Counted from the stretch's first letter, positions 28,526-48,982 are shown. The stretch is 64,000 bases of DNA from Acidobacteriota bacterium (GCA_018268855.1 JAFDVR010000003.1:509-64508), one strand, 5' to 3'. Program-made: numbers and translations. The notes: generated by a model not told the origin, from the letters alone.

Positions 28526-28827
28526 AACTGCGGTTCACTGAAAAAGCAGTTGCATCTATTCGTCGCAGCAAAGCGCATTATCGGAGGGAAGCTTCTGCTT
28601 CAATAGCGGAGCGATTTAATGCCGACGTGATTGCAACAGCATCGCTGCTTCTGCGTAGTCCGCAGTTAGGACGAGTTCCTGTCTTTGATGATCCAAAATT
28701 GGCCAATCTACGCACATTGCCCTTGGCCGGATTTCCGTATGCCATTTATTACCGTGTAGAAGCGGACGCAATTCTGATTGTGGATGTGATCCACGGTGCA
28801 CGTGATCTGAAGTCTCTATTGCGTTAA
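28522..28827 (+). CDS. parE: Type II toxin, ParE/RelE family
   Basis: 101 aa. MKLRFTEKAV...PQLGRVPVFDDP...RTLPLAGFPYAIYYRVEADAILIVDVIHGARD matches the ParE pattern. Confidence 0.75.
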   Translation: MKLRFTEKAVASIRRSKAHYRREASASIAERFNADVIATASLLLRSPQLGRVPVFDDPKLANLRTLPLAGFPYAIYYRVEADAILIVDVIHGARDLKSLLR

Positions 28828-32283: not shown

Positions 32284-33303
32284 TTACGCCTGGCTTACGA
32301 TGACGGTTTGCGGCGCTTTCTGGAGGATGTGCTGTTTGGAAGAAGCGTATCCCGCGTTGCGGAACATGGTTTCGAATTCAGCGAAGGTGTAAGCATCGCC
32401 TGCCGCCGTGGTGCCGAGCATGGTCATCGCAAATCCAGCAGCGATGGGCGGCGAAACGCGATCGTCGTTCGGCACGAAGTCGAGCGTGGCGCAGCAGCCC
32501 TGCGGGGTGAGCGAGGCGCGGATTTTGCGCATCAGCTTTTCGCAGGTGGGTTGATCGAAGTGATGGAAGAAGTTTGTGACCAACACCACATCGTACGGGC
32601 CGCCGAACTCCGTTTCGAAGGCATCTCCGGGCAGAAGAGAATGACGTTCTGCAACGCCGAACCGCTTTGCGTTCTCGCTGGCGACGGCAAGCACGTTGGG
32701 CCAATCCAATGCTGTAATCTGCGCCTTTGGGCTACGCTGTGCCATGAGAATGCCAAACATTCCATGTCCGGCAGCGATATCCAGCACGCGCATTTCTCCG
32801 TCGCTTGCGAGCATTGCAGCGATTTCTGCCGCCGCAGGAAATATCAGAGGGACCATCTGCCGGGCGAACTCGACCCAGACAGGATTGTCGTGACTGACGG
32901 TTCCCTCGCCGGGAAGGGTGGTCCTGCCTGTGCGCACCACATCTGCAAGACCGCGAAACGGCGCGGTTACGCGCTCATCCAGAAGGAAACCAGCCACGCT
33001 GCCCATGTATGCCTGGGAGTTGCGGTCGAGGAAGAGAGCGGCGTCGGGCGTGACCGTGTACTCGTTTCCCTGCTTGAGGAGGAAGTTGCAGATCACGAGG
33101 TAGTCGCAAAGAATGCGAACACCGCGCGCGGAGGCAGCGGCCGCCTGGGCGATGGTCTCTGCAGTGCGATTGCCGGCAGCGATGACGGTAAACAGATCCA
33201 GATCGATCGCTGCTTTCAAGGCCGCGGAGCGCTGATAGGCGTTTAGGGTCTCGAAGATAAACGCTGGGTTTGGTTGAGGAGCGGAGATATTCGCGGTAGC
33301 CAT
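32284..33303 (-). CDS. Class I SAM-dependent O-methyltransferase (with N-terminal dimerisation/wHTH-like domain)
   Basis: 339 aa. N-terminus ...ETLNAYQRSAALKAAIDLDLFTVIA.... SAM motif VLDIAAGHGMFG. Confidence 0.75.
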   Translation of the reverse strand: MATANISAPQPNPAFIFETLNAYQRSAALKAAIDLDLFTVIAAGNRTAETIAQAAAASARGVRILCDYLVICNFLLKQGNEYTVTPDAALFLDRNSQAYMGSVAGFLLDERVTAPFRGLADVVRTGRTTLPGEGTVSHDNPVWVEFARQMVPLIFPAAAEIAAMLASDGEMRVLDIAAGHGMFGILMAQRSPKAQITALDWPNVLAVASENAKRFGVAERHSLLPGDAFETEFGGPYDVVLVTNFFHHFDQPTCEKLMRKIRASLTPQGCCATLDFVPNDDRVSPPIAAGFAMTMLGTTAAGDAYTFAEFETMFRNAGYASSKQHILQKAPQTVIVSQA

Positions 33304-33508
33304 AGGCCCGCCATTCTACACACCGCGGAATCTTCTGCTCCGAATAAATTTTCCGGTGGGAGTGTCGGAGGCGTTGTCAAGAGGGGAGGAGGTGGAAGGT
33401 GTTTGTAAGTTGCTGAGTTTGCGGTGAGTTAGGCGGATGAGAAATTTGCCGGATTGGTGTGTGCGGGTTGGTATTCTAGAAAGGTAGAGAAAAAGAGAAG
33501 AGCGGAGC

Positions 33509-33537
33509 GGGACGCGTGAGCGTCCCTTTTGATTTTT
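33509..33537 (+). terminator. Intrinsic-terminator-like hairpin with no plus-strand gene upstream
   Basis: GGGACGC-GTGA-GCGTCCC followed by TTTTGATTTTT. Located 17 bp before the first ORF of the phage-derived cluster. Confidence 0.5.
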
Positions 33538-33553
33538 AAAGCGTGCGTGTGGG

Positions 33554-33949
33554 GTGTGTGTTGTGGGTAGAAGGCCATTGGTGAGTAAGGTGGCGGCGGT
33601 GGAGAAGAACGAGGTTGTGAAGCGGCAGGCGGTGCAGGAGCAGGTGGGGAGCGAGCCGGCGGCGGCGGGGGCCAGAAAGCGGCGGAAGTTGCAGCGCGGC
33701 AGTTGCAAGGAGTTTTTGCAGAAGGAGGTTTCTTCGATTCTGGAAGAGGCTGTGGACAAGTTGAAAGAAAAGATCCTGGCGGGAGATGCAGGGGCGCTGA
33801 AGACGTTGTGGCAGATGAGCGGTCTGGAGAAAGAGCCATCCATCACGCGCAGGAGCAGGAGCAACACGGCGCGGCAGATTTTGAAGGAGCTGGATGAGCA
33901 TGCGGTGGAAGACGAGCCGGGCGAGATGGACGAGAGGCAAGAGGGATGA
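33554..33949 (+). CDS. Hypothetical protein, first gene of the phage-derived cluster
   Basis: 131-aa ORF (GTG start, uncertain). Charged and helical (...KEFLQKEVSSILEEAVDKLKEKILAGDAGALKTLWQMSGLEKE...). 4-nt overlap with the next gene. A small-terminase-like role is only a guess. Confidence 0.35.
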   Translation: MCVVGRRPLVSKVAAVEKNEVVKRQAVQEQVGSEPAAAGARKRRKLQRGSCKEFLQKEVSSILEEAVDKLKEKILAGDAGALKTLWQMSGLEKEPSITRRSRSNTARQILKELDEHAVEDEPGEMDERQEG

Positions 33950-35397
33950 AGAGAGTATGGAAGCGATGGCAGCCGGGATGGCTGATCGGTGTGTTGCTGG
34001 GGTGGGCGCTTGGCGGAATGGGTGGGGTGGCGCACGCTGAAGTGTTGCGAACGCATGTGGCGGACACGCTGTATACGGCGGATGGAGGTGCGGCGCATGG
34101 GACGGCGCTGATCAGTTGGCCTTCCTTCACGACGGCGGCGGGTGAGACGGTGGCGAAGGGCAGCATGGCGGTGACGCTGGGGGAGACGGGCGGGCTGAGT
34201 GTGTCGCTGGCTCCGAATGCGGGCGCGTCGCCGGTGAACACGTATTACACGGTGGTGTTTCACCTGGGGGATGGAGCGGTGAGCCGCGAGTTCTGGGTGG
34301 TGCCTGTGTCGGAGAGCGATGTAAGGCTGGAGCAGGTGCGGGTGAGCGTGCTGCCTGCTTCGGTGGCGATGCAGACGGTGAGCAGGCAGTATGTGGACCA
34401 GGCGATTGCGCGCGCCGTTGCGGAGTTGTCGAACGACGATTCGACTGCGTATGTGCGGAAGGCGGGAGATACGATGGCGGGGCCGCTGGTGCTGCCGGGC
34501 GATCCTGTGTTGGGCACGCAGGCTTCGACGAAAAGTTATGTGGATGCGAGCGTGGCGCAAACGATCTCCGGCCTTGGCAGCATGTCTATGCAGAACGCGG
34601 ATGCGGTGCATGTGACGGGTGGCGTGTTGAGCGGGCTGACGAGTGCAGGCATGGACAGGCTGGACCTGACGATTGGAACGACGAGCGCGCATGGGTTGAA
34701 CTTTGGCGATGCGAACCTGTACCGCTCGGCGGAAGGGCAGACGGTGTTCAACGCGAATGCGAGTGGCGAGATTGGCGTGACGGTGTCGAACCTGAACAAT
34801 GGGCCGGGTGCGGACTCATTTTTTCGCGTGCAGTCGAACAACGCGATCACGACGTCGTTCGGTTTTTATGCGTTCGGTCCGGGACGTGGAGCGGGTGGAT
34901 TGATTAAGCCCTTGTCCGGGTATCTATCGACGGCAAATGGAATGACGAACGGCATGGTGATTGCGACGGAGAGCGCGGCCCCGGTTGTGTTTGGGTACAA
35001 CAACGCGGAGAGCGTGCGGGTGCAGCAGGGGCTTTCGGTGGGGACGTCCGCGGACCCGGGCGCGGGCAATGTCCTGGCGGCGGGCGCGGTGATCGGCAGC
35101 GTGCAGGCGATCGCGTACAGCGCGACTCCGGTGTTGAGCGTGCATGGCAATGCGAACCGGATTGTGCTGACGGGCGATGTGGTGTCGAGCACGATGGATG
35201 CGGGCGCGGACGGGCAACGGATGTGCATTGCCGTGGTGCAGGATGCGACCGGGGGACATGCGTTTGCGTGGCCGGTGAACATGCTTGGCGCGATGACGGT
35301 GGGGACGGCCGCGGGCAAGCGGAGTCAGCAGTGTTTTGTGTATTACGCGGCGGATGGAGCATGGATAGCGGAGAGTGCGGGCGTAGTGAATGAGTAG
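33946..35397 (+). CDS. Phage tail-fibre-like protein
   Basis: 483 aa. Contains the tail-fibre hallmark YVRKAGDTMAGPLVLPGDP...STKSYVDASVAQ and a C-terminal tip-like segment ...IAVVQDATGGHAFAWPVN.... The hydrophobic N-terminus is atypical for a fibre. Confidence 0.5.
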   Translation: MKRVWKRWQPGWLIGVLLGWALGGMGGVAHAEVLRTHVADTLYTADGGAAHGTALISWPSFTTAAGETVAKGSMAVTLGETGGLSVSLAPNAGASPVNTYYTVVFHLGDGAVSREFWVVPVSESDVRLEQVRVSVLPASVAMQTVSRQYVDQAIARAVAELSNDDSTAYVRKAGDTMAGPLVLPGDPVLGTQASTKSYVDASVAQTISGLGSMSMQNADAVHVTGGVLSGLTSAGMDRLDLTIGTTSAHGLNFGDANLYRSAEGQTVFNANASGEIGVTVSNLNNGPGADSFFRVQSNNAITTSFGFYAFGPGRGAGGLIKPLSGYLSTANGMTNGMVIATESAAPVVFGYNNAESVRVQQGLSVGTSADPGAGNVLAAGAVIGSVQAIAYSATPVLSVHGNANRIVLTGDVVSSTMDAGADGQRMCIAVVQDATGGHAFAWPVNMLGAMTVGTAAGKRSQQCFVYYAADGAWIAESAGVVNE

Positions 35398-35472
35398 GTG
35401 CTGCGGTGCTGCGCGCACGGCGCTCCTGCGCGGAGGGCGGACTGCTTTGCGTGGCGCTTCCGCTGGTCGCGA
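35398..35472 (+). repeat. Family-A repeat, full 75-nt copy starting directly after the TAG stop
   Basis: GTGCTGCGGTGCTGCGCGCACGGCGCTCCTGCGCGGAGGGCGGACTGCTTTGCGTGGCGCTTCCGCTGGTCGCGA. Confidence 0.85.
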
Positions 35473-35595
35473 GGAAGAGTGTTGGCGGGGTCGAGAGAGC
35501 CTGCGGCTAAAGTCGTTTTTGTGGCCGGGATCTTCAGGGGCCTGAAGATCCCGGCTCCCTCCGAATGGGGCACCCGCTTTTGGTTGAAAGGACGG

Positions 35596-37044
35596 ATGGG
35601 GGATGGGGTGAAGGAGAGTGAGTGGGCTTTGCTGGGCCGGAGACTGGATCTCCGGCCTGATTGTTTGGCGGGTGTGCGGCTGGCGGAGACGTTGTTGCGG
35701 ATTCGGAACAAGAGCGGGGCGATTGTGCCGCTGGTTGCGAACCGCGCGCAGAGAGCGTTTGAGTGCAGGGCGGGCCGCGCGAATGTGGTGTTGAAGGCGC
35801 GGCAGATGGGGATGACGACGTGGATTGCGGGACGGTTTCTGTTGAAGACGATCCTGATCCCCGGCACCACGAGTGTGCTGGTGGCGCATACGCGCGAGGC
35901 GGCGGAGCAGATGTTCACCGTGGTGCGAAGGATGTGGGAGCACCTGCCGGAGGACCTGCGTGAAGGCGCGGGACGGACGGCGCGGCTGAATGCGGGCGCG
36001 ATGGTGTTTGGCGAGATCGATTCAGAGTTTCGCGTGGTGAGCGCGGCGGAGATGAATGCAGGTCGCGGCGTGACGATACGAAATCTGCATTGCAGTGAGG
36101 TGTCGCGGTGGCCGGGCGATGCGATGGAGACGCTGGCGGGTTTGAAGGCGGCGCTGGTGCCGGGCGGCGAGCTGGTGATGGAGTCCACTGCGAATGGAGC
36201 GTTTGGATGCTTCTATCGCGAGTGGATGCAGGCGGAGGAGAAGGGCGTGGTGCGGCACTTTTTTCCATGGTGGATGGAGGAGAGTTATCGTGCGCGCGCG
36301 GTACAGCGGAGTTCGCTGCGCGAGGATGAGCAGAGGCTGGTGGAGCGCGAAGGACTGCAGCTGGACCAGATCGGTTTCCGGCGGGAGCTGGAGCGAACGT
36401 ACGGCACGATGCGGGTGCAGGAGTTTGCGGAAGATGCGGTGAGTTGCTTCCGGGCGAGCGGCGACTGCGTGTTCGATGTGGCGGGACTGGTGGCGTGTGA
36501 GCCGCTGGAGACGCGGTGGAACGGTGCTCTGCATATATGGCTGCCGCCGGTGACTGGGCGAACGTACGGCATGGGTGTGGACCCGGCCGGAGGCGGGAGC
36601 GAAGGAGATTTTGCCGCGGTGCAGGTGGTGGACCAGTTGACGGGAATGCAGTGCGCGGAGCTGCGGGCGAGACTGCATCCGCGTGTGCTGTCGGGGCATG
36701 TGACGGAGCTGGCGCGGGAGTACAACGATGCGATGGTGGCGGTGGAGAGAAACAATCATGGCGCGGCAGTGCTGGCTTATCTGGATGGGCGCAATCTGCG
36801 GATGTACGTCGAGCATGGGCAGATGGGGATGTTGACGACGAACTTTTCGCGCGCGGAGATGATTGCGTGGATGGGTGTGTTGCTGACGGAACGGCCGGCG
36901 CTGTTCCGGAGCGCACGGCTGATGGAGGAGTGCAGGTCGTTTGTGTTGACGAAGAGTGGACGGGCAGAGGCCGCGAGTGGGACGCATGATGACCTGGTGA
37001 TGGCGATGGGTGTGGCGCAGCGGCAGCGAGTTGTTAGTTGTTAG
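35596..37044 (+). CDS. Phage terminase large subunit
   Basis: Tracked ORF starts at 35398 inside the repeat. I chose the ATG at 35596 (MGDGVKES...). Walker-A-like VVLKARQMGMTTW. Nuclease-half pattern ...NLHCSEVSRW...ESTANGAFGCFY...HDDLVMAMGVA. Confidence 0.75.
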   Translation: MGDGVKESEWALLGRRLDLRPDCLAGVRLAETLLRIRNKSGAIVPLVANRAQRAFECRAGRANVVLKARQMGMTTWIAGRFLLKTILIPGTTSVLVAHTREAAEQMFTVVRRMWEHLPEDLREGAGRTARLNAGAMVFGEIDSEFRVVSAAEMNAGRGVTIRNLHCSEVSRWPGDAMETLAGLKAALVPGGELVMESTANGAFGCFYREWMQAEEKGVVRHFFPWWMEESYRARAVQRSSLREDEQRLVEREGLQLDQIGFRRELERTYGTMRVQEFAEDAVSCFRASGDCVFDVAGLVACEPLETRWNGALHIWLPPVTGRTYGMGVDPAGGGSEGDFAAVQVVDQLTGMQCAELRARLHPRVLSGHVTELAREYNDAMVAVERNNHGAAVLAYLDGRNLRMYVEHGQMGMLTTNFSRAEMIAWMGVLLTERPALFRSARLMEECRSFVLTKSGRAEAASGTHDDLVMAMGVAQRQRVVSC

Positions 37045-37060
37045 TTGTTAGGTGTATGGC

Positions 37061-37160
37061 GGGATTGCTTCGCTTGGCGCTCCCGTTGGTCGGTGCTGCG
37101 CGCACGGCGCTCCTGCGCGCAGGGCGGGAACGCTTTGCGCGGCGCTTCCGTTGGTCGCGA
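37061..37160 (+). repeat. Family-A repeat, about 1.5 copies
   Basis: GGATTGCTTCGCTTGGCGCTCCCGTTGGTCG then GTGCTGCGCGCACGGCGCTCCTGCGCGCAGGGCGGGAACGCTTTGCGCGGCGCTTCCGTTGGTCGCGA. Same half-plus-full layout as 63858-63929. Confidence 0.8.
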
Positions 37161-37185
37161 TTGGAGCTTGTGATTGGTTTGGAAG

Positions 37186-37240
37186 AAAGCAGGTCTCTCC
37201 ACTACGGGCGCAAAAAGCGCGCCCTTCGGTCGAGATGACG
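37186..37240 (+). repeat. Family-C repeat
   Basis: AAAGCAGGTCTCTCCACTACGGGCGCAAAAAGCGCGCCCTTCGGTCGAGATGACG. Copies at 39923, 40974, 41781. Short relatives at about 28873, 38259, 42325, 56097. Confidence 0.85.
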
Positions 37241-37274
37241 TATTGGTAAATGAGGACGATTTGCCTCGCGAGCA

Positions 37275-37315
37275 AACCCACCCATGCGCAAATAGCGCGC
37301 ATGGATGGGGCACCC
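37275..37315 (+). repeat. Family-D repeat (variant)
   Basis: AACCCACCCATGCGCAAATAGCGCGCATGGATGGGGCACCC. Hairpin CCATGCGC/GCGCATGG. Relatives at 38344, 39521 and inverted at 43541. Confidence 0.75.
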
Positions 37316-37348
37316 CTCTATGCGCGATGAGGATGTCGTAAGCTTTGG

Positions 37349-38221
37349 ATGCGGCTGGTTGAGGGGTTTGGCGTGGCGGTTTTGGCGGTGCAGGCGATTC
37401 GCAGGATGCGCGGCGGGGCGCAGAGCCAGTTGATGCTGGGAGCGGATGGCCATCTCTGGGTGGTGAAGTTTCAGAACAATCCTCAGCATTTGCGTGTGCT
37501 GGCGAATGAGTTGATCGCGACTCGTCTGGCGGAGGCGGTGGGACTGAGTGTGCCTGCGACCGATGTGGTGGAAGTGACGGAGTGGCTGATTGCGCATTCG
37601 CCGGAGATGATGGTGGACCGCGGCAAGGGTGTGCGCGAACGGTGCGCGGCGGGGTTGCAGTTTGGATCGCGGTTCATTGGCGGTCTCATGCCGGGGCAGG
37701 TTTTGGACTATGTTCCGGAAGACCAGATTGCAGAGGTGCGCAATGTGGAGGAGTTTGCCGGGATGCTGGTGATCGATAAGTGGACCGGCAATGCGAATGG
37801 GCGGCAGGCGGTGTTTCATCGCAGGCCGCGAGAGCGGAAGTATCGCGCTACGTTCATCGACCAGGGGTATTGTTTCCATGCGGGTGATTGGACGTTTTCG
37901 GATGCGCCGTTGCGTGGGGTGTATCAACGCAACGCTGTTTACGCCGGTGTGACGGGGTGGGAGAGTTTTGAGCCGTGGCTCTCGCGTGTGGAGACGATGA
38001 GCGAGGATACGGTGTTTGCGATTGCGGAGGCTGTTCCGCCGGAGTGGTATGGCGGCGATCCTGCGGAGCTGGAGCAGTTGATGGTGCGATTGCTAGAGCG
38101 GCGGGCGCGGGTGCGGGAGTTGATTGTGTCGTTTCGGGATTCAGATCGGGAGCCGTTTCCACATTGGGGACGGAAGAAGGTTGTTTTTGGGAAGATGCCG
38201 GAGCCGCGGTTTGTTAACTAG
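37349..38221 (+). CDS. HipA-like (PI3/4-kinase-fold) putative Ser/Thr kinase
   Basis: 290 aa. Catalytic-loop-like LVIDKWTGNANGRQ (Asp then Asn at +5, as in HipA GNxDxHxKN and in protein kinases). Metal-binding-like ATFIDQGYCF. N-terminus ...GGAQSQLMLGADGHLWVVKFQNNPQ.... Assignment made by eye only. Confidence 0.6.
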   Translation: MRLVEGFGVAVLAVQAIRRMRGGAQSQLMLGADGHLWVVKFQNNPQHLRVLANELIATRLAEAVGLSVPATDVVEVTEWLIAHSPEMMVDRGKGVRERCAAGLQFGSRFIGGLMPGQVLDYVPEDQIAEVRNVEEFAGMLVIDKWTGNANGRQAVFHRRPRERKYRATFIDQGYCFHAGDWTFSDAPLRGVYQRNAVYAGVTGWESFEPWLSRVETMSEDTVFAIAEAVPPEWYGGDPAELEQLMVRLLERRARVRELIVSFRDSDREPFPHWGRKKVVFGKMPEPRFVN

Positions 38222-38290
38222 CTCCTGCGCGGAGGGCGGAAGACGCGCTTCGCGCGTGAAAGCAGATTCCTCGCTGCGCTCGGAATGACA
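38221..38290 (+). repeat. Family-A partial copy plus short family-C-like unit, starting at the TAG stop of the kinase gene
   Basis: (TA)GCTCCTGCGCGGAGGGCGGAAGACGCGCTTCGCGCGTG then AAAGCAGATTCCTCGCTGCGCTCGGAATGACA. Confidence 0.8.
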
Positions 38291-38343
38291 ATGTATGGGT
38301 ACGTTGAAGAGTTTGGTGGTTGGGTTGCATTGAGAGTGTGAGA

Positions 38344-38385
38344 CCCCACCCTTTCGCGATAAAGCCGCGAAAGAATGGGGCACCC
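38344..38385 (+). repeat. Family-D repeat
   Basis: CCCCACCCTTTCGCGATAAAGCCGCGAAAGAATGGGGCACCC. Hairpin TTTCGCG/CGCGAAA. Nearly identical copy at 39521-39562. Confidence 0.85.
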
Positions 38386-39226
38386 AGAGTGGGAGGTGGG
38401 TTTGGCGGCGCGGGTTCCTTGTGAGTTCTTCCTGGTGCGGTATGTGCCGGATGCGGTGAAGAACGAGTTTGTGAACATTGGGGTGGTGCTGCGGGAGGCG
38501 GCGCGTCCTGAGGGCGCGGTGGTGCGTTTTACACGCGACTGGAGCCGCGTGCGGTGCATGGACCCGGATGCGGATACGGGGATGCTGGAGTCGCTGGAGG
38601 GTGAGATTGCGGCGCGGCTGCGGCTGGGGGATGCGGACTTCAAGCCGGTGATGCGGGTGATGGAGGATACCTTCTCCAATGCGGTGCAGTTGAGTGAGCC
38701 GCGTGCTTCGCTGGCGGAGAGCGTGGCTGCCGAGATGGAGCAGTTGATGGCGATGTATGTAGAAAGCCGCCGTGAGCGTGTGGCGCGGAAGCGAACGGGG
38801 CGCGCGGCGTTGCAGGCGGAGATGCGTGGAGCGTTTGAGCATGCGGGTGTTTGGGAGTTGATGCGCAAACGGATTGCGGCGGCGGAGTATACGAGAGTGG
38901 GTGATCCGCTGAAGATCGATTGCGGCTACAGGCCGGACTTTTATTCCCAGGCCGCAGGCGCTTATTCCCAGGCCGCAGGCGCTGTGGTGAGGATGTTCCA
39001 TGCCGTATCTCTCGAAGGTGATTTGGAGGCGGCGAAGGTGTTGGCGTTTGCTGCGCCGGCTTTGCGCGATGGATTGCAGCGGGTGGAAGGCGCTTCTCTT
39101 GATCTTGCCGCCGTGGTTGAGCCGGTGCGGCAGGTGGAGGAGTCGTTTGCTGAAGAGGGTTTGGAGCGGTACCGGTATGGTGTGGAGACGATGGAGAGTG
39201 CGGGGATTCGAGTGATTGCGGCTTAG
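38375..39226 (+). CDS. DUF3037-like protein of unknown function
   Basis: 283 aa. N-terminal CEFFLVRYVPDAVKNEFVNIGVVLRE...VVRFTRDWSRVRCMDPDAD matches my recollection of the DUF3037 signature (aromatic-x-h-h-R-[FY]-V-P-x5-E-F-h-N-h-G-V-h-L). The ATG at 38375 lies inside the family-D repeat, so the true start may be slightly downstream. Confidence 0.55.
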   Translation: MGHPEWEVGLAARVPCEFFLVRYVPDAVKNEFVNIGVVLREAARPEGAVVRFTRDWSRVRCMDPDADTGMLESLEGEIAARLRLGDADFKPVMRVMEDTFSNAVQLSEPRASLAESVAAEMEQLMAMYVESRRERVARKRTGRAALQAEMRGAFEHAGVWELMRKRIAAAEYTRVGDPLKIDCGYRPDFYSQAAGAYSQAAGAVVRMFHAVSLEGDLEAAKVLAFAAPALRDGLQRVEGASLDLAAVVEPVRQVEESFAEEGLERYRYGVETMESAGIRVIAA

Positions 39227-39362
39227 AATCTTGGGGCGGTGGCGGAGACGGCCCGGCGGGAGTTGCGTATCTAGTTGTTAGTTTTTGGTTGTTCGTTGTT
39301 AGTGCGGTGGTTTTGGAGGCGTGCCTGATGGCGCGCCTTTTGTTTTGGAAAACGGAGATTGA

Positions 39363-39425
39363 CCAGGGCTAAAGCCCTTTTCAACGGAGTGGGTAACAGC
39401 GAGCTGAAGCCCGCTTCCCATCCGG
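39363..39425 (+). repeat. Family-B-related repeat
   Basis: CCAGGGCTAAAGCCCTTTTCAACGGAGTGGGTAACAGCGAGCTGAAGCCCGCTTCCCATCCGG. Matches 11693-11757. Confidence 0.8.
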
Positions 39426-39520
39426 TTTGTGGCAGACTTGAGGGTTTAAAAGCAGCGAGTTAGCAAGTCAGCGGTTTATTTCTCGCACGCTTTAGCTTTA
39501 TGGTCGCGCGGCGCGCGATA

Positions 39521-39562
39521 GCCCACCCTTTCGCGATAAAGCCGCGAAAGAATGGGGCACCC
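39521..39562 (+). repeat. Family-D repeat
   Basis: GCCCACCCTTTCGCGATAAAGCCGCGAAAGAATGGGGCACCC. Confidence 0.85.
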
Positions 39563-39601
39563 GGCTTTGGGGCGGAGTTGAGGGTTTAAGTCAGCGGTTT
39601 T

Positions 39602-39632
39602 GGCACAGCTTTTGGGCTGTGCCTTTTTGTTT
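39602..39632 (+). terminator. Intrinsic terminator closing the kinase/DUF3037 unit
   Basis: GGCACAGC-TTTTGG-GCTGTGCC followed by TTTTTGTTTG. Immediately upstream of the portal RBS (GGAGGTGGG at 39635-39643). Confidence 0.6.
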
Positions 39633-39646
39633 GTGGAGGTGGGTGT

Positions 39647-40918
39647 GTGGGTGTGAAGGAGAGATTGCGCGGGGCCTGGGATTGTCTGCGTGTGGATGCG
39701 CGTGAGCGTGGGGCGCGGAAGACGGCGATGTTGCCTGGGGTGTTGACGGCTTTTCGTCCTGCTGGTGTGGCGAATGTAATGCCGAAGCCTACGGCGGCGA
39801 ATCTGCGGCGGTTTGCCGAGACGCCGCTGGCGCGGCGCGCGATCAATGTGGTGAAGGACCGCATTGCCTGCATGGATTGGCAGGTGCGGTGGAAGAGGGA
39901 TGCGGATTTGCAGCGGATGGGAAAAGCAGATCTCTCCACTGCGGACGCAAAAAGCGCGTCCTTCGGTCGAGATGACGATTCATTATTGCGCATTTTGCGA
40001 CGGTGTCTCGAGGCGCCGAATCCTGGAGATTCGTTTCGCACGTTGATGGAGCAGGTGATCGAGGACGTGCTGGTGGGTGGGTTTGGTGCGATGGAGATGG
40101 AGCTGACCGGGGATGAGGCTGCTCCGTTTCGATTGTGGCCGGTGGATGGCGCGACGATCCAGGTGGATGGCAAGTGGAGTGGCGATGAGAGTGAGCCGCG
40201 GTATGCGCAGGCGAATGGGTTGCAGCGTACTGCTCTGCTGGATGCGGAGTTGATGTATGTGCGGCTGAATGCGCGGACGCATACTCCGTTTGGGCTGGGG
40301 CGGCTGGAGGTTGCGTTTGAGGCGATCAGCCAGTTTTTGCAGGCGAACCGATATGCGCACCGGCTGGCGAGCAATTCCTCTGCGCAGTTTGCGCTTTGGT
40401 TGCAGGACGCCACGCCGGAGCAGCATGGGCGCATGGTGCAGTGGTGGCGCGACTGTGTGGAGGGGTCGGGCGAGGTGCCGATCTTCAGTACGGAGACGAA
40501 GCCGGAGGTGTTGCGCTTCTCGGGCGGAACGGATGCGGACCTGCGGCTGGAGTGGCAGGAGTTTTTGATGCGCATGATTGCGAATGCTTTCGATCTTCCT
40601 CCGATGATGCTGGGCGTGCAGCATGATGTGAACCGCTCCACCGCGACGGAGCTGGCGCAGGAGGCGTTTGAGAGTGCGGTGAAGCCGGTGGCGAAACTGG
40701 TGGCCGAGCATATTACGCGCGATCTGTTTGCGAAGCGGCTGGGACTGACGGAGGTGGAGTTCGTCTTCAACGAGTTGATGACGGAGGACGATGCGAAGGA
40801 CGTGTCAGTGCAGGTGGAGCTGTTGAAGGCGGGTGTGTTGACGGTGGATGAGGTGCGACGGACGTTGGGGTGCTCCGCGCACGGCGATAGACGCGCTTCG
40901 CGCGTGTTCTTTGCGTGA
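39647..40918 (+). CDS. Phage portal protein (HK97-like family)
   Basis: 423 aa (GTG start). ...AINVVKDRIACMDWQV...LEAPNPGDSFRTLMEQVIEDVLVGGFGAMEM...WPVDGATIQV...RYAHRLASN... fits the portal pattern. Contains an in-frame family-C repeat, and its last about 16 codons are family-A repeat sequence. Confidence 0.7.
   Translation: MGVKERLRGAWDCLRVDARERGARKTAMLPGVLTAFRPAGVANVMPKPTAANLRRFAETPLARRAINVVKDRIACMDWQVRWKRDADLQRMGKADLSTADAKSASFGRDDDSLLRILRRCLEAPNPGDSFRTLMEQVIEDVLVGGFGAMEMELTGDEAAPFRLWPVDGATIQVDGKWSGDESEPRYAQANGLQRTALLDAELMYVRLNARTHTPFGLGRLEVAFEAISQFLQANRYAHRLASNSSAQFALWLQDATPEQHGRMVQWWRDCVEGSGEVPIFSTETKPEVLRFSGGTDADLRLEWQEFLMRMIANAFDLPPMMLGVQHDVNRSTATELAQEAFESAVKPVAKLVAEHITRDLFAKRLGLTEVEFVFNELMTEDDAKDVSVQVELLKAGVLTVDEVRRTLGCSAHGDRRASRVFFA
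39923..39977 (+). repeat. Family-C repeat inserted in frame inside the portal ORF
   Basis: AAAGCAGATCTCTCCACTGCGGACGCAAAAAGCGCGTCCTTCGGTCGAGATGACG, translated as KADLSTADAKSASFGRDD within the portal protein. Confidence 0.85.
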
Positions 40919-40949
40919 TGAATTTTGCTGGCGCTTCCGTTGGTCGCGA
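40870..40949 (+). repeat. Family-A repeat spanning the portal 3' end and stop codon
   Basis: GTGCTCCGCGCACGGCGATAGACGCGCTTCGCGCGTGTTCTTTGCGTGATGAATTTTGCTGGCGCTTCCGTTGGTCGCGA. Confidence 0.8.
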
Positions 40950-40973
40950 TGGAGAGTATTACCGACTTGAAAG

Positions 40974-41028
40974 AAAGCAGGTCTCTCCACTGCGCGATTG
41001 CTTTGCAATCGCTCCGGTCGAGATGACG
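40974..41028 (+). repeat. Family-C repeat (variant loop)
   Basis: AAAGCAGGTCTCTCCACTGCGCGATTGCTTTGCAATCGCTCCGGTCGAGATGACG. The central hairpin is replaced by GCGATTGC-TT-GCAATCGC. Confidence 0.8.
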
Positions 41029-41082
41029 GTGTGTATGGGTTATCGAGATGACGATGTGTGTGGTGGGTGTTGTGGAGGTGGA

Positions 41083-41688
41083 ATGCGGGTTGAGGCGATG
41101 GCGGTGGAGTTTCCTGAGGTGAGTGGGCATCCGAACCGGCTGCCGTTTGCGGGTGTGTTGACGCTGGTGGATGTGGCGAGTGATAAGGCCCCGAGTGGGG
41201 CGCGCGGGCATAAGGTGATCCTGACGCGCGCGGCTGCGGAGGCGGCGTTGCCGAGTCTGCTGGGGATGGCGGTGGACTTCAAGGCTGGATGGGATGGGCA
41301 TGATGCGCGGCAGAAGTGCGGCATCATCACGGCGGCGGAGGTGGTTGGCAAGGAGTTACGCGTGAGCGGGTATCTGTTTGCGCGTGACTTTTCCGAGATG
41401 GTGGATGAGATGCGCGCGCATGGTGAGGACGCGCTCGGCATGAGCTATGAGCTTGCCGATGCGCATGTGGTGGACATGCGTGCGAGTGTGTGGACGTTGA
41501 GCAAGGCGACGTTTACCGGTGCGGCGATTCTGTTGCGGGAGAAGGCGGCGTATAAGTCGACCAGCTTCCGGTTGGAGGCGGAGGGTGAGCGGCGGTGCAG
41601 GTTGTTTCCGCGTGCTCGTGGCGTCCAGAGAGGCCGGGGTGAGCGGGTGGTTCCTTCGCGTGTGGAGCGACGGTCCCTCAGGGGCTAA
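41083..41688 (+). CDS. Prohead protease-like protein (HK97 S78-like pattern, tentative)
   Basis: ATG at 41083 follows GGAGGTGG. ...LPFAGVLTLVDV...WDGHDARQKCGIIT...LGMSYEL... resembles the His/Ser arrangement of prohead proteases. The C-terminal codons and stop lie in a family-B repeat. Confidence 0.42.
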   Translation: MRVEAMAVEFPEVSGHPNRLPFAGVLTLVDVASDKAPSGARGHKVILTRAAAEAALPSLLGMAVDFKAGWDGHDARQKCGIITAAEVVGKELRVSGYLFARDFSEMVDEMRAHGEDALGMSYELADAHVVDMRASVWTLSKATFTGAAILLREKAAYKSTSFRLEAEGERRCRLFPRARGVQRGRGERVVPSRVERRSLRG

Positions 41689-41743
41689 AGCCCGGTTCGT
41701 GGCGGCGGAGAAATGGACGGGCTGAAGCCCGTCCCCTTCAAAG
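41675..41743 (+). repeat. Family-B repeat (core)
   Basis: CCCTCAGGGGCTAAAGCCCGGTTCG...GGACGGGCTGAAGCCCGTCCCCTTCAAAG. Confidence 0.8.
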
Positions 41744-41780
41744 CAAGCTGCTGCGCGTGAGCTTGAGGCGGGCTTGAAGA

Positions 41781-41835
41781 AAAGCAGGTCTCTCCGCTAC
41801 GGGCGCAAAAAGCGCGCCCTTCGGTCGAGATGACG
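41781..41835 (+). repeat. Family-C repeat
   Basis: AAAGCAGGTCTCTCCGCTACGGGCGCAAAAAGCGCGCCCTTCGGTCGAGATGACG. Confidence 0.85.
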
Positions 41836-41893
41836 GTGAGTAGAGGGCGCGATAAAGCTGCTAGAACTTCGGTCCAGATGACGGGACTTTGTT

Positions 41894-42235
41894 GTGGTTG
41901 AGATGACGGTGTTGTTTGAAGAGAGGTGGAGATTGGAAGACGTGATGCATGTTGGTGAAGAGCAGGATGTGATGGAGATTGTGGCTACGGTAGCGGAGCC
42001 GGCGGTGGAGTTGGAGCGGCGCGTTGCGGAGTTGGAGGGCCAGATTCGTGCGTTGATGGCACAGACTTCTGCCGCGCATGAGAGTGCGGGACGGAAGACG
42101 GCGAAGACGTTTTCTGTCGCGGCGAAGGGTGAAGCGATGGAAGCGGGCGCGCTGGATGCGGCGTTTGCGAGCCTGAGCGTGGAGCAGCGGATCGCCGTGA
42201 AGATGGAGATGATGCGGAGCGGGTTGCTGGGTTAG
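41894..42235 (+). CDS. Coiled-coil protein, possible scaffolding protein
   Basis: 113-aa ORF between the protease-like and capsid genes. ...AEPAVELERRVAELEGQIRALMAQ... Start uncertain. Confidence 0.35.
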   Translation: MVEMTVLFEERWRLEDVMHVGEEQDVMEIVATVAEPAVELERRVAELEGQIRALMAQTSAAHESAGRKTAKTFSVAAKGEAMEAGALDAAFASLSVEQRIAVKMEMMRSGLLG

Positions 42236-42377
42236 TGCTGCGCGCACGGCGAGTTAGCAAGTCAGCGAGTTAGCAAGTCAGATGGTCGCGCTTATGCGCG
42301 ATGACGATGCTTTGCATCGTGGCAAAAGCAGATCCTTCGCTACGCTCAGGATGACAAATCTATAGCTGATCGATGTA

Positions 42378-42403
42378 GGTGCGGCTTTGGCCGCGCCTTT
42401 TTT
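42378..42403 (+). terminator. Intrinsic terminator immediately upstream of the capsid gene
   Basis: GGTGCGGC-TTTG-GCCGCGCC (one G-U pair) followed by TTTTTT. Confidence 0.55.
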
Positions 42404-42440
42404 GTTGAGTGAGAAAAGATCGCGCGCGGATGGGCGCGGC

Positions 42441-43424
42441 ATGAGGAGAAAAATGAGGGCAGAATTTAAGGACATTCACGCGGCGGCGGATTACATGGGG
42501 CCGGGCGCGATTGAGGTGCAGCAGTATCAGACGGAGATTACGGACATTGTTCGCCGTCGCGGTGTGTTTGGGCAGCGGATTAAGCAGGTGCCGGCGACGG
42601 GACATCCATCGCGGTTCTTTGAGGAGACGGGCATTCCTTCTCCGACGGCTGCGGCCGGGTTTGTAGATCCGCGCAACATTGTTGCTCCGGTGGTGACGCC
42701 GACGCGCGTGGAGCGCAGCGTTCCGCTGAAGGCGCTGGTGGCGCAGTTGAATTACAACCTCTTCGATCTGGAGCTGGGGCAGCAGCAGAGCCAGTTTGCT
42801 TATCTGCAGGCGAAGGACCTGGCGGACACGGTGGATGGCGTGATGCGCGCGCATGATGTTGCGCTGTGGAACGGCAACGACACGAGCCTGAGCACGCCGA
42901 CGACGAACCAGTATTTTGGCGCGGCTGCGCAGATTGCCGCAGGCGGCAACTCGGTGACGGTGGGCGTGAATGACAGCATTGTGGACGCGCTGAAGTCCAC
43001 GATTGCGCAGATGGTGGCGAACTCAAGCTATGCGGTGAGGCCGACGGCCATCTACGCGAACCCGGTGCTGCTGGACCTGATCGATCGTGAGATGAAGTCT
43101 GCGTTCAACGTGGTGTTGAATACGAGAGCGATTGAGGCGGGTGTGACAGTGAAGACGCTGAGCACGCAGGCGGGCGAGATTCCTCTGATTCCTGAGTGGA
43201 CGCTGAGCTATACGGGCACGCCTGGGTCGGGTTCGGCTGTGCTGCCGGCGTACATCGTGACGGAGGACCTGATCGAGTATCACTGGCTGACCGATCCGAG
43301 TCCGCGTGTGTTTCAGCTTGGCACGCCGGGGTCGCTGGCGAGCCAGCATGTGGTGGTGAAGTTTGGCGGTCTGGTGGTGAAGGGCGCGAACTATGCGCAC
43401 TACCAGGTGCTGGTGGATCGCTAG
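42441..43424 (+). CDS. Phage major capsid protein (HK97-fold, tentative)
   Basis: Position after the protease and scaffold genes. About 327 aa from MRRKMRAEFKD (alternative ATG at 42453 after GAGGAG). ...VFGQRIKQVPATGHPSRFFEE...NYNLFDLELGQQQ...WNGNDTS... is capsid-like. Confidence 0.6.
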   Translation: MRRKMRAEFKDIHAAADYMGPGAIEVQQYQTEITDIVRRRGVFGQRIKQVPATGHPSRFFEETGIPSPTAAAGFVDPRNIVAPVVTPTRVERSVPLKALVAQLNYNLFDLELGQQQSQFAYLQAKDLADTVDGVMRAHDVALWNGNDTSLSTPTTNQYFGAAAQIAAGGNSVTVGVNDSIVDALKSTIAQMVANSSYAVRPTAIYANPVLLDLIDREMKSAFNVVLNTRAIEAGVTVKTLSTQAGEIPLIPEWTLSYTGTPGSGSAVLPAYIVTEDLIEYHWLTDPSPRVFQLGTPGSLASQHVVVKFGGLVVKGANYAHYQVLVDR

Positions 43425-43505
43425 GTCCTACGCGGACGGCGGGGGACGCGCTTTGCGCGTGTTCTTTGGTAAGTGAACATCGCGTGGCGCTTCCGTTGGG
43501 CGCGA
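43425..43505 (+). repeat. Family-A repeat starting directly after the capsid TAG
   Basis: GTCCTACGCGGACGGCGGGGGACGCGCTTTGCGCGTGTTCTTTGG...GCGTGGCGCTTCCGTTGGGCGCGA. Confidence 0.8.
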
Positions 43506-43540
43506 TGGAGTTTTGCTGGTTGTGCATGGATTTCCCAGGC

Positions 43541-43581
43541 GGGTGCCCCATACATGCGCGTTCTTTGCGCATGTGTGGGTT
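43541..43581 (-). repeat. Family-D repeat, inverted
   Basis: GGGTGCCCCATACATGCGCGTTCTTTGCGCATGTGTGGGTT is the reverse-complement-like form of the 37275 copy. Confidence 0.7.
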
Positions 43582-43618
43582 CTCCGCCTTTTTCTTAATG
43601 GCTTGCGGGAGGTGGGGC

Positions 43619-44215
43619 GTGGTGTATCTGGAGCCGGGCGAATATGCGCGGTTTGGTTTGGATGACGAGACGGGCGACAGCCTGGTGGTGAGTGCGTCGG
43701 CGATGATCGATGCGTTTTGCCGCAGGCAGGGATTCGATGTGAAGCAGTACACGGAGCGGCTGCGTTTTGCGCCCTGCGGACGCAGGGTGATGGTGAGTGC
43801 GACGCCGGTGGTGAACGTGGTGAGTGCGCGTGTGCGTGCAGAAAGACGAAGGACAGCGATGTTTGCCGATGCGATGGAGGCGGCTGTGGCTGCATTTGGG
43901 CTGGAGGGGAGCTGGGCGAATGTTGCGGTGGAGGAGATGGAGGTCTCTGCGCTGGGAGAGATTTCCTTTGCGGCGCAGACGTTTGGCGCTCCGTGGACAG
44001 AGGCTGAGGTGGTGTACACGGCCGGATGGGAGACGGTGCCCGACGCGGTGAAGGTGGCGTGCGCGCAGGTGGTGCGCAATGCGCAGGCCATGCCGGCTCT
44101 GAATGTAAAGCGCACCACGGTGGATGCGATGCAGATGGAGTACTTCAGCGGCGCACTTCTGGATGAGGAAGTGAAGCGGATGTTGCGGCCGTTTGTGGCC
44201 ACGAGGCTGGGATGA
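43619..44215 (+). CDS. Head-tail connector protein (gp6-like)
   Basis: GTG start after GGGAGGTGGGG. VVYLEPGEYARFGLDDETGDSLVVSASAMIDAFCRRQGF...VVYTAGWETVPDAVKVACAQVV resembles gp6-like connectors. The upstream part of tracked ORF 43196.. overlaps the capsid gene and repeats. Confidence 0.55.
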   Translation: MVYLEPGEYARFGLDDETGDSLVVSASAMIDAFCRRQGFDVKQYTERLRFAPCGRRVMVSATPVVNVVSARVRAERRRTAMFADAMEAAVAAFGLEGSWANVAVEEMEVSALGEISFAAQTFGAPWTEAEVVYTAGWETVPDAVKVACAQVVRNAQAMPALNVKRTTVDAMQMEYFSGALLDEEVKRMLRPFVATRLG

Positions 44216-44604
44216 GCGAGATGAAGGTGTGGGCGCGAAGAGCGGCGCATGCGCTGGTGCAGTCGGCGGGCACGAATACGGTTGCGCTGCGCATGCCTGC
44301 GGCTGCGGGAGCTACGGATGCGGATGAGCTGGGGATTGTGGCGTCTGCGTGGAGTGAGGTGCCGTTGTGGCCGGTGATGGTGCGCACGTCCGCGCGTGGA
44401 ACTGCGTTGCTGGTGAGCGCGGAGGTGTTGCATGCGGCGTTGTCGCTGGAAGATGCGCATGCGGTGAAGCGGGCCTTGCAGGAGTGCGAAGGCGTGTCGA
44501 TTGCGGGCGCGTGGATGTTTGTGCGGGCGGTGGAGGTGCGTGAGGTGGGCGGCGAACCGTACCTGTATCGCATGGAACTGGTGGCAACAGAAGGGAGCGC
44601 ATAA
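44212..44604 (+). CDS. Phage structural protein (head-closure/adaptor position)
   Basis: 130 aa. 4-nt overlap with the connector gene. Function inferred from position only. Confidence 0.4.
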   Translation: MSEMKVWARRAAHALVQSAGTNTVALRMPAAAGATDADELGIVASAWSEVPLWPVMVRTSARGTALLVSAEVLHAALSLEDAHAVKRALQECEGVSIAGAWMFVRAVEVREVGGEPYLYRMELVATEGSA

Positions 44605-44607
44605 GCG

Positions 44608-45096
44608 ATGCAGAACATGGCAGACACGTTTTATGCAACGCTGCGCGACCGGCTGGCGAGTGTGAATGCGGGCCGCGTGGTTGCGGTGCGCGGACAACTG
44701 CGGCCCGCGGTGGTGGTGGATGAGAACGAGATGCCGGAGCAGGCCACGGATGCGGGCGTCTTTCATCTGCGCTGGGGCGCGCGCCGGACAGACCGCGGCG
44801 GCGCGCTGCCCATGGTGACGGCGGAGTGCGTGATTACGTTTCGCAGCAGCGGCGCGGATGCGCAATCCATCCTGGCGCGAGGGCGGCAGAGGAACGCGAT
44901 GTGCGCGGAGCTGGATGCGATGCTGCTTCCGGCCATGGCGGTGAAGAAGGCGTTTAGCGGGAGTGGAGCGGTGGCGATGGCGACGAACATCTTCTGGTGC
45001 GAGCAGGGTGAGCGCGTGGTGAAGGAGAAGGGCGAGTTGCTGGAGACCACAGCGACGGTGCTGGTGATGAGTTATCTGGAGGAGGGCGAGCGATGA
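44608..45096 (+). CDS. Phage structural protein (tail-completion position)
   Basis: 162 aa. Tightly packed between neighbouring genes. Function inferred from position only. Confidence 0.4.
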   Translation: MQNMADTFYATLRDRLASVNAGRVVAVRGQLRPAVVVDENEMPEQATDAGVFHLRWGARRTDRGGALPMVTAECVITFRSSGADAQSILARGRQRNAMCAELDAMLLPAMAVKKAFSGSGAVAMATNIFWCEQGERVVKEKGELLETTATVLVMSYLEEGER

Positions 45097-46067
45097 GCGA
45101 TGCGAAGACCATTGTTGCGACTGCTCCTGTGGCGGATCGCGTGCGCGCCTACTTTGCTCCTGTGAACCGCGTCACCGGCAATGCGGGCGTCTTCGATCCT
45201 GCGCGCGATGGGCGGTTTGCGCTGGAGGCACCTCCGCCGGGATGGATGGATGCGGGCGTGGTGCGGGACTTTGTGCGGCGTTCGGAGACGAAGGTGTCTC
45301 CGCTGATGAGTGGCGCGCCTGCGGTGGCGCGAACGCAGGTGCGCAGCGCGGTGGGTGCTGAGATTGCGTGGACGTTTGATGGATGGAGCAGACTGGCGAT
45401 GGCGCTGAGCGGCGGCGGCGCGCTGATGAATCTGCTGGAGGTTGCGGCGAGTGCGGACGCGAGGGACTCCGGCGGTCATGCCGCGGATGCGGTGCCAGTA
45501 TTGAGTGGAAGCACGGCGCGCGTGTTGCAGGTGAGCGCGGATGCGGGCTTTGCGGTGGGCGACATCGTGGTGGTGGATGTGGACTATGGCGGCGAAACGG
45601 GATTCGCCGGCAGCGGCATCAGTGGGGCGTATGTGGCGAATGCGGACGATGTAACGGGCGATCCGCATACTGTGCGGCGGGTGAGCTTCAACGTTGGGCG
45701 TGTGGTGGATGTGAACGGCGGCGCGGTGACGTTGAGTGACGACTTGCCTGCGGGTACTCCCACGGAAGCGATGAAGGTGGCGAAGGTGCACGGGTTTGTG
45801 GACCGCGAGGGTGGACGGTTCTTTCAGGAGTGGTCTGCGCTGTTTGTGGTGGATGGTGTGCAGGGCGATCGCGTGCTGTTTCACTATCCGCGTTTGCAGG
45901 CCGCGGCGGGCGCGGAAGAAACCGTGGGCACGCTGGCGGGACAACTTTCCACGTGGCCGCTGCGGGCGCGCATGCGGGCGCTGCCTGTGGTGGATGCGAA
46001 TGATGGCGAGACGGTGTTCTGCTTCCGCAGCTATCTGCCTGCGGCGATGCGCGAGGTGCTGCGATGA
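45093..46067 (+). CDS. Phage structural protein (major-tail or tail-tube position)
   Basis: 324 aa. 4-nt overlaps on both sides. No family recognised. Confidence 0.4.
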   Translation: MSDAKTIVATAPVADRVRAYFAPVNRVTGNAGVFDPARDGRFALEAPPPGWMDAGVVRDFVRRSETKVSPLMSGAPAVARTQVRSAVGAEIAWTFDGWSRLAMALSGGGALMNLLEVAASADARDSGGHAADAVPVLSGSTARVLQVSADAGFAVGDIVVVDVDYGGETGFAGSGISGAYVANADDVTGDPHTVRRVSFNVGRVVDVNGGAVTLSDDLPAGTPTEAMKVAKVHGFVDREGGRFFQEWSALFVVDGVQGDRVLFHYPRLQAAAGAEETVGTLAGQLSTWPLRARMRALPVVDANDGETVFCFRSYLPAAMREVLR

Positions 46068-48355: not shown

Positions 48356-48368
48356 TGGGACATTCGCA

Positions 48369-48947: not shown

Positions 48948-48982
48948 GACTTTTGTTGAACAAATAAAAAGGAGAATGAGAA

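Follow-up and report, generated by a model that had tools for sequence, protein, structure and literature searches.

A 64,000-nt stretch of DNA from an Acidobacteriota bacterium (GCA_018268855.1, JAFDVR010000003.1:509-64508), whose source contig is metagenome-assembled and which is referred to in its whole length as the window, carries a pair of genes, here designated A and B, between the large terminase (TerL) and portal genes of a phage-derived cluster. The pair, predicted to encode a HipA-like kinase and a DUF3037 protein, had been placed there by a sequence-only reading of the window (37349-38221 and 38375-39226), and the listing of open reading frames (ORFs) and the profile matches bore this placement out. 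The features at the centre of this account are given below, numbered from the first letter of the window, with protein lengths in amino acids (aa) and the sources of each call in brackets.

33946-49240, + strand: whole phage-derived cluster containing the pair (profile matches, tblastn synteny)
35398-37044, + strand: large terminase gene, TerL, directly 5′ of the pair (Terminase_6C, phrog_2)
37349-38221, + strand: gene A, predicted short Ser/Thr kinase of the HipA superfamily, 290 aa (ORF listing, Pfam, PADLOC, PHROG, AlphaFold2 (AF2))
38375-39226, + strand: gene B, two-domain DUF3037 protein and putative kinase-neutralising partner, 283 aa as first called (Pfam, PADLOC, PHROG, AF2)
39647-40918, + strand: portal gene, directly 3′ of the pair (Phage_portal, E 4.7e-47)

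Gene A scored 38.7 bits with Pfam HipA_2 (PF20613), whose gathering score is 27 (E 8.6e-10), over aa 16-114 only, and matched HipA_C (PF07804) weakly, with 26.2 bits under a cutoff of 30.5, while a phrog_3162 match spanned aa 18-239. The four core motifs of Hip kinases, i.e. the Gly-rich loop, the ATP-binding Lys, the catalytic D-x4-N and the Mg-binding Asp (Gerdes et al. 2021, PMC8262856), are all present, as GGAQSQ at aa 22-27, K40 in VVKF, DKWTGN at aa 143-148 (D143 and N148) and D171 in the IDQG of aa 170-173, respectively. They were invariant in 40/40 database homologs and either invariant or ≥85% conserved among 77 genomic orthologs, including the DKWTGN and IDQG motifs that had been picked out beforehand, and their spacing is comparable to that in the canonical HipA of the window (DMHLKN at aa 309-314). 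The AF2 model of gene A found its best Protein Data Bank (PDB) matches in PI4K-IIα (4hnd, E 1.7e-4, prob 1.0) and HipA (3tpb, E 3e-3, prob 0.99); sequence and profile searches of A and B against PDB chains returned nothing significant, with a weak local kinase match to Shewanella HipA only. Since HipA_2 was matched above its threshold, the four motifs are invariant and the modelled fold is PI4K-IIα/HipA-like, gene A is assigned by sequence and model to the HipA-superfamily kinases with a HipA/PI3-4-kinase-like fold, in keeping with its initial description. Couple_hipA, the N-subdomain 1, had no match in gene A, and the 290-aa protein consists of the core kinase only. As also noted at the outset, no gene of a HipB-type helix-turn-helix (HTH) partner adjoins gene A, whose 5′ neighbour is the terminase.

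The membership of gene B in the DUF3037 family, at first suggested by its N-terminus, was substantiated by Pfam (E 4e-21), and the protein matched phrog_5137 as well. The 283-aa ORF exists as called, while its start has probably to be moved: because ATG 38375 falls inside a 40-bp hairpin repeat, TTG 38402 is the likely true start, giving a protein of 274 aa in agreement with the NCBI gene model. In this shorter form, the DUF3037 domain occupies about aa 1-120 and is followed by a C-terminal alpha/beta domain. The C-terminal 154 aa had no Pfam match even at E ≤1, by which DUF1829 was ruled out as the second domain. The AF2 model of gene B (predicted local distance difference test score (pLDDT) 79) had no significant match in the PDB by Foldseek, with a weak and inconclusive PD-(D/E)xK nuclease-like similarity, and yielded two full-length BFVD matches to unnamed viral proteins (E about 1e-8). 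A HipS-like or HipA N-subdomain-like nature of the DUF3037 domain was likewise rejected, as hhalign found no similarity to the full-length HipA of the window.

The 3′-end of gene B differs from that of its orthologs. Its stop, TAG 39224-39226, lies 16 codons ahead of the stop common to all orthologs; the ancestral frame runs to 39272-39274, and the in-frame DNA past the TAG (39224-39274) still encodes the ortholog-conserved tail NLGAVAETARRELRI. This late TAG goes back either to a recent nonsense mutation or to an error in the assembly. In addition, a 21-bp tandem duplication at 38941-38982 (TTATTCCCAGGCCGCAGGCGC twice) has placed YSQAAGA twice in a poorly conserved linker of low model confidence. 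In four divergent clusters (L087, L088, L093 and L097) the kinase is ∼60% identical to that of the window and the DUF3037 partner only 30-35%, with the architecture and C-terminal tail of gene B kept despite this low identity; by sequence comparison, the DUF3037 partner evolves faster than the kinase.

A and B matched the two component hidden Markov models of one PADLOC candidate system, PDC-M66A and PDC-M66B, in the same order and adjacency, although both matches were weak and did not extend beyond the N-terminal halves (A: E 2.2e-7, aa 13-136; B: E 5.1e-9, aa 17-166). The earlier statement that no function had been assigned to such a pair is outdated, given this match and the anti-phage activity shown for homologous pairs (PMC12548924, PMC13092281). 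In the Retron-Sda1 operon, a kinase and a DUF3037 protein defend against phage Bas51 with the retron parts being dispensable; deletion of the HipA-like kinase abolished defence and deletion of the DUF3037 gene was toxic (PMC12548924). DS-6, an E. coli system from DefensePredictor that was renamed HipAD, comprises a kinase and a DUF3037+DUF1829 protein; a catalytic kinase mutant lost defence, the AlphaFold3 (AF3) complex of its A and B proteins reached an interface predicted template modelling score (ipTM) of 0.76-0.79, and a toxin-antitoxin (TA)-like model was proposed (PMC13092281). Both pairs are likened to that of the window by description only. HipAD is reportedly placed in prophages by the title of the Brenes & Laub 2025 work on it. 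The window pair shares with DS-6/HipAD the HipA-related kinase as first gene, the DUF3037 partner as second and the absence of a HipB-like HTH antitoxin; however, DS-6/HipAD is accessory in E. coli, whereas the window pair is core-like and vertically inherited within a non-mobile phage-derived cluster. With Retron-Sda1, from which the functional model adopted below is taken, it shares the stand-alone kinase and DUF3037 module, but the retron pair is tied to a type III retron reverse transcriptase and noncoding RNA, and its DUF3037 protein has a C-terminus like those of retron DNA-binding proteins.

The co-occurrence of DUF3037 and HipA-like kinase genes in unrelated phyla, which had been suggested at the outset, was found directly in Cyanobacteria: in Microcoleus the two genes are 28 bp apart, HipA_2 first and DUF3037 second, in non-phage surroundings, and a Calothrix plasmid has a kinase/DUF3037 pair next to genes for TIR, integrase and type III restriction proteins. 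The kinase-then-DUF3037 pairing thus recurs in another phylum without phage genes, and such neighbours have been reported for Bacteroidota and Pseudomonadota in a study that found DUF3037 and HipA-like genes to be strongly associated in genomes (PMC12548924). The short kinases of hipIN, hipJS and hipMP resemble gene A in being core kinases of 279-321 aa with the Gly-rich loop near the N-terminus and a downstream partner gene, and for short Hip kinases of this arrangement, in which the downstream gene encodes a putative antitoxin, a role in abortive infection was proposed (Gerdes et al. 2021, PMC8262856); their partners, however, are HipS-like/HIRAN or resolvase-like, and DUF3037 is not mentioned in that work. 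Canonical HipBA, as in E. coli K-12, is also encoded in the window, where its early call was borne out by Pfam:

61185-62742, − strand: canonical hipBA, HipA with Couple_hipA and HipA_C (DMHLKN at aa 309-314) and an HTH_3 HipB (Pfam)

The kinases of both belong to the same superfamily and share the D-x4-N, Mg-binding Asp, Gly-rich loop and ATP-binding Lys. In contrast to canonical HipBA, the pair has no HTH HipB, its kinase gene comes first (a reversed order), its partner is unrelated to HipA, and its kinase lacks N-subdomain 1, with 290 versus 423 aa.

The cluster around the pair runs in the order fibre-like p483, TerL, A, B, portal, p257, p113, p345, head-tail adaptor, p130, p162, p324, p763 and p85, and is bounded by host GFO_IDH_MocA and methyltransferase genes at the left and by higBA-like, purE and purK genes at the right, the backbone of the window being GFO (30259-31281), the cluster, purE (50184-50690), purK and E2. 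In species-representative genomes, 347 stretches were found to code for relatives of gene B, the best 80 of which were examined by searching the window proteins against these loci with tblastn. Essentially all of these best 80 came from Acidobacteriaceae, including Terriglobus, Granulicella, Edaphobacter, Acidipila, Silvibacterium and others, and the same 13-16 kb head/packaging cluster was found at the same GFO…purE-purK locus in ∼80 species of the family. Gene A adjoined gene B, co-oriented, in 79/81 orthologous loci; TerL lay directly 5′ of the kinase gene in 66/71 loci with enough sequence, and the portal gene directly 3′ of B in 71/75. A second arrangement, found mainly in one Granulicella/Edaphobacter clade, has the p345-to-p324 block 5′ of the fibre gene and leaves TerL-A-B-portal intact. 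Edaphobacter aggregans carries terminase, pair, portal and a few genes followed by purE-purK, and in Terriglobus albidus the stretch from GFO_IDH_MocA to purE-purK contains the pair but no phage genes. A compact example with public gene calls lacked integrase, repressor and replication genes between GFO and purE, the window had no tRNA, and the window ORFs scanned included no integrase.

The putative capsid protein of the cluster, p345, is named so by position only: it had no Pfam or PDB match, and a marginal PHROG ‘major head protein’ match had E 0.078 and 1/14 members. Its orthologs are 76-88% identical to that of the window and are more conserved than purE and purK. A 70%-identical homolog lies in very large IMG/VR contigs (L098-L100, 74-214 kb), with no recognisable terminase or portal nearby and with genes for DNA ligase, polynucleotide kinase-phosphatase, CCA-adding enzyme and RNA ligase as neighbours; these contigs represent either the phage lineage from which the cluster originated or an exchange with such a lineage. 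A tblastn search of 50,697 GenBank phage records gave no relatives of B or p345, and a search of IMG/VR with the B alignment for distant viral relatives returned the same acidobacterial family only, 18 IMG/VR contigs carrying the cluster.

How the cluster has been inherited was assessed from pairwise protein distances and from the ratio of nonsynonymous to synonymous substitution rates (dN/dS), calculated as medians by the Nei-Gojobori method (NG86) for pairs with dS <1.2; as dS is near saturation, the ratios are rough.

p345: mean pairwise protein distance 0.18, median dN/dS 0.12
purK: mean pairwise protein distance 0.26, median dN/dS 0.16
purE: mean pairwise protein distance 0.265, median dN/dS 0.19
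A (kinase): mean pairwise protein distance 0.30, median dN/dS 0.23
portal: mean pairwise protein distance 0.31, median dN/dS 0.27
B (DUF3037): mean pairwise protein distance 0.35, median dN/dS 0.28
TerL: mean pairwise protein distance 0.41, median dN/dS 0.375
p324: mean pairwise protein distance 0.46, median dN/dS 0.42
p763: mean pairwise protein distance 0.55, median dN/dS 0.45

ORFs were intact at almost every locus. Co-divergence was measured as the correlation (rho) of the pairwise protein-distance matrices between genes across loci, and all matrices were correlated. With purE and purK, rho was 0.44-0.90 overall and 0.50-0.74 for A and B (e.g. A versus purK 0.74, B versus purE 0.58, TerL versus purK 0.90), and A and B correlated with TerL, portal and other cluster genes at rho 0.45-0.62. 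Because the locus is fixed, its genes co-diverge with purE and purK, dN/dS lies at 0.12-0.45 and integrase and replication genes are lacking, the pattern points to a domesticated, host-maintained element resembling gene transfer agents (GTAs), and not to a decaying or mobile prophage. The likeness to GTAs of the RcGTA type consists in ∼15 kb of head, packaging and tail genes at a fixed locus, vertical inheritance, purifying selection and the lack of integrase or replication genes. The window cluster differs in being unrelated to them in sequence, in belonging to Acidobacteriota and in having a capsid assigned by position only. No GTA cluster is known to us in which a kinase toxin pair separates the terminase and portal genes.

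The pair and the cluster proved separable. Five loci, in T. albidus and four Granulicella, hold the pair with no phage genes, and no terminase or portal remnants were found beside the pair at any of them. In the A+B tree these pair-only loci are nested among cluster-bearing relatives, a full-cluster locus (L081) being the sister of three. At least two losses of the phage genes have therefore taken place, and in each the pair stayed exactly where it was. The opposite state, TerL followed by the portal gene across ∼250 bp of non-coding DNA without the pair, was seen once only, in an IMG/VR contig with a related cluster (L096, 2200-2640). Pair and cluster therefore each exist without the other, which speaks against A and B having an obligatory role in structure or assembly, and fits either a toxin module that resists its own deletion or one that is useful by itself.

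The spacers around the pair contain the following terminator-like and repeat elements.

38346-38385, + strand: 40-bp hairpin repeat, copy 1 (CCACCCTTTCGCGATAAAGCCGCGAAAGAATGGGGCACCC), overlapping the first-called start of gene B, −22.5 kcal/mol
39315-39350, + strand: first terminator-like hairpin 3′ of gene B, an 11-bp stem (39315-39340) then a T-tract, −20.1 kcal/mol, z −4.45
39523-39562, + strand: 40-bp hairpin repeat, copy 2, perfect by identity to copy 1, between the two terminators
39602-39633, + strand: second terminator-like hairpin, just 5′ of the portal start, stem 39602-39623 and T-tract, −16.5 kcal/mol, z −3.16

The clean terminator that had been proposed to close the unit is thus present as the second hairpin, and the hairpin ahead of it is stronger. 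The stem of the latter resembles the AGGCGTGGCC…GGCTGCGCCT terminators found 3′ of B in orthologous loci. Because a terminator-like hairpin occurs in 72/74 B-to-portal gaps, the terminator after gene B is a conserved feature; such hairpins were found in 2/66 TerL-to-A and 2/79 A-to-B gaps. Both of these gaps are short, with medians across loci of 120 bp and ∼63 bp, respectively. No sigma-70-like site was detected on the + strand of the window, although acidobacterial promoters may not fit the consensus, and 5′ of gene A in 74 loci the best sigma-70-like scores equalled those of shuffled controls and no conserved non-coding block was seen. TerL, A and B probably form a single transcription unit that ends at the conserved terminator, with the portal gene opening the next; an unconventional promoter may lie ahead of gene A. 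The autonomous, independently transcribed cassette of the sequence-only reading was not supported in this respect, as neither a promoter of its own nor an upstream terminator was detectable. The two perfect direct copies of the 40-bp repeat bracket gene B, copy 1 supplying the ATG 38375, and related elements with ATGGGGCACCC at their end occur at 35565, 37305 and 53811 and, on the reverse strand, at 43541.

Taken together, we consider it probable, short of confident, that A and B are a kinase toxin and its restraining partner of the HipAD/PDC-M66 type, fixed inside a domesticated GTA-like cluster. The short HipA-family Ser/Thr kinase encoded by gene A would act as a growth-arresting toxin, which the DUF3037 protein of gene B would bind and restrain; a trigger such as phage infection would release the kinase, and the infection would be aborted or the cell arrested. 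Lying within the cluster, the module would also disfavour deletions and may stabilise the cluster. Toxin/antidote behaviour and anti-phage defence are ascribed to the window pair by analogy with the homologous systems, whose behaviour likewise suits the kinase-toxin or abortive-infection role that had been put forward and is the best hypothesis, and the retention of the pair where phage genes were deleted fits an addictive or beneficial toxin module. Several observations weigh against this interpretation. Family-wide vertical inheritance and housekeeping-like conservation are not typical of defence systems, whose distribution is usually patchy, and the near-universal placement of the pair between TerL and the portal gene could reflect a function connected with the phage-derived element and not with defence. 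By sequence, the window pair is a distant branch of PDC-M66, given matches that are weak and cover the N-terminal halves only, and the AF2 model of gene A has moderate confidence (pLDDT 65.5, predicted template modelling score (pTM) 0.68). DS-6B is a DUF3037+DUF1829 protein whereas the C-terminal domain of the window B has no Pfam match, so regulation may differ, and without the conserved 16-aa tail the window copy of gene B may be impaired.

The near-universal position is what a dedicated control module of the GTA-like element would predict, in which the kinase would arrest or reprogram the producer cell or phosphorylate a packaging or host factor and B would gate the kinase so that only a subpopulation, or cells under certain conditions, commit to particle production. 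The TerL-A-B-portal order in about 93-95% of ∼80 species-level loci, in both cluster arrangements, speaks for it, as do the lack of a terminator or detectable promoter between TerL and A together with the conserved terminator after B, the co-divergence of A and B with TerL, portal and other cluster genes (rho 0.45-0.62), and a conservation that is housekeeping-like and not patchy. We nevertheless regard it as rather unlikely, for the pair is intact in at least two lineages without any phage genes, TerL lies directly beside the portal gene without the pair in L096, and the homologs of Cyanobacteria, E. coli and the Bacteroidota retron occur or work without phage structural genes. The fullest form of this idea, i.e. 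that the pair is a built-in control or maintenance module of a family-wide domesticated GTA-like element, co-expressed with the terminase, coupling particle production to kinase-driven arrest or death of the producer and hindering deletion of the cluster, is unlikely in our estimate; if true, it would imply a previously undescribed family-wide GTA-like element in Acidobacteriaceae, which are among the most abundant soil bacteria. Precise retention of the pair where both flanks were deleted, the TA-like behaviour of the homologous pair (PMC12548924) and the presence of other TA modules in the window (hipBA, higBA-like and parE) would suit a purely selfish addiction module with no defensive or regulatory benefit, its position being a frozen accident of the ancestral phage. 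Yet purifying selection near the purE/purK level over family-scale divergence exceeds what chromosomal TA loci usually show, loss of the pair does occur, as in L096, and homologs give measurable phage defence, which leaves this alternative improbable.

The two remaining alternatives fare worse. The sequence-only reading had taken the pair for an independently transcribed moron, and a moron of a recently integrated, potentially active prophage would account for genes inserted between terminase and portal with a strong terminator after them, and for the flagging of the region as viral by virus-detection pipelines (18 IMG/VR contigs). It is very unlikely, considering that the same GFO…purEK/E2 locus is occupied in ∼80 species of several genera, that no integrase, repressor, replication gene or tRNA was found in the cluster or elsewhere in the window, that divergence tracks the host genes with dN/dS <0.5 for every cluster gene tested, that the rearranged form of the cluster is largely confined to one clade, that the 50,697 GenBank phage records contain no relative of B or p345, and that no promoter-like signal was detected 5′ of gene A. 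The pair is a fixed component of the cluster, vertically inherited throughout Acidobacteriaceae, and not the cargo of a recent prophage. That A and B are ordinary virion or assembly components is scarcely credible: their presence in almost every cluster copy, between two packaging genes, would suit such a role, but gene A has a predicted protein-kinase fold with conserved catalytic residues, both genes persist without structural genes, and the homologs act as a defence system.

This kind of pair is already recognised as anti-phage (PDC-M66/HipAD); the novelty lies in how it has evolved and in its surroundings. Whereas a defence system is as a rule patchy, mobile and short-lived, the window pair is vertically inherited, housekeeping-like and locked between terminase and portal. 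A description of the cluster was not found in the searchable literature, and in existing work such regions are listed as prophages or “core virome” contigs (PMC5900883, PMC12142844). Being called ‘viral’ by metagenome pipelines, the cluster may inflate counts of prophages or of the ‘core virome’ in soils and peat. The findings also raise the questions of whether GTA-like particles are made by Acidobacteriaceae, which are dominant in soil and poorly tractable, whether a kinase toxin module can serve as the regulator or anti-deletion lock of a GTA-like element, and what the substrate and trigger of DUF3037-partnered Hip kinases are.

Compared with its orthologs, the window locus looks somewhat eroded or invaded, and sequencing errors are possible in a metagenome-assembled source. 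Gene B has its late stop and 7-aa tandem duplication, the fibre gene is much shorter than in E. aggregans, the spacers around A and B carry the hairpin repeat elements described above, and the N-terminal part of the TerL ORF probably includes repeat-derived sequence. The portal of the window has a specific 16-aa in-frame insertion at aa 92-107 (GKADLSTADAKSASFG; 39920-39967) that coincides with a small repeat element, GCAAAAAGCGCG[C/T]CCTTCGGTCGAGATGAC, which recurs at 37210 and 41805 and, in related form, near 41017; every copy found in the 64-kb window falls within the cluster. An insertion between the cluster and purE (49404-50040) comprises a HigB-like toxin gene (PF05015, E 4e-20) and a small partner that is weakly HTH-like, and was absent from all 81 orthologous loci checked.

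Variation was also seen at the fibre end of the cluster. The fibre-like gene (33946-35397) encodes 483 aa in the window and 1,533 aa with a GDSL lipase/esterase domain in E. aggregans (L002, 512-5113); at most other loci only the N-terminal third of the protein is conserved, with ∼4-5 kb between the match and TerL, and at one locus (L102) a 166-aa ORF replaces the gene. The receptor-binding end of the cluster appears to vary rapidly. Elsewhere in the window, a ParE toxin gene (PF05016) at 28192-28827 lies beside an upstream 100-aa ORF, a probable parDE, and the canonical hipBA stands directly beside an Mrr-type restriction endonuclease gene (Mrr_N + Mrr_cat), making 61185-63832 a small defence-island-like spot. 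The window thereby holds at least four toxin-type modules, namely hipBA, the higBA-like genes, the probable parDE and the kinase pair. Over the cluster (33000-48000), the coding strand has a GC skew of 0.24-0.38, markedly above the values of about 0-0.2 in most of the rest of the window.

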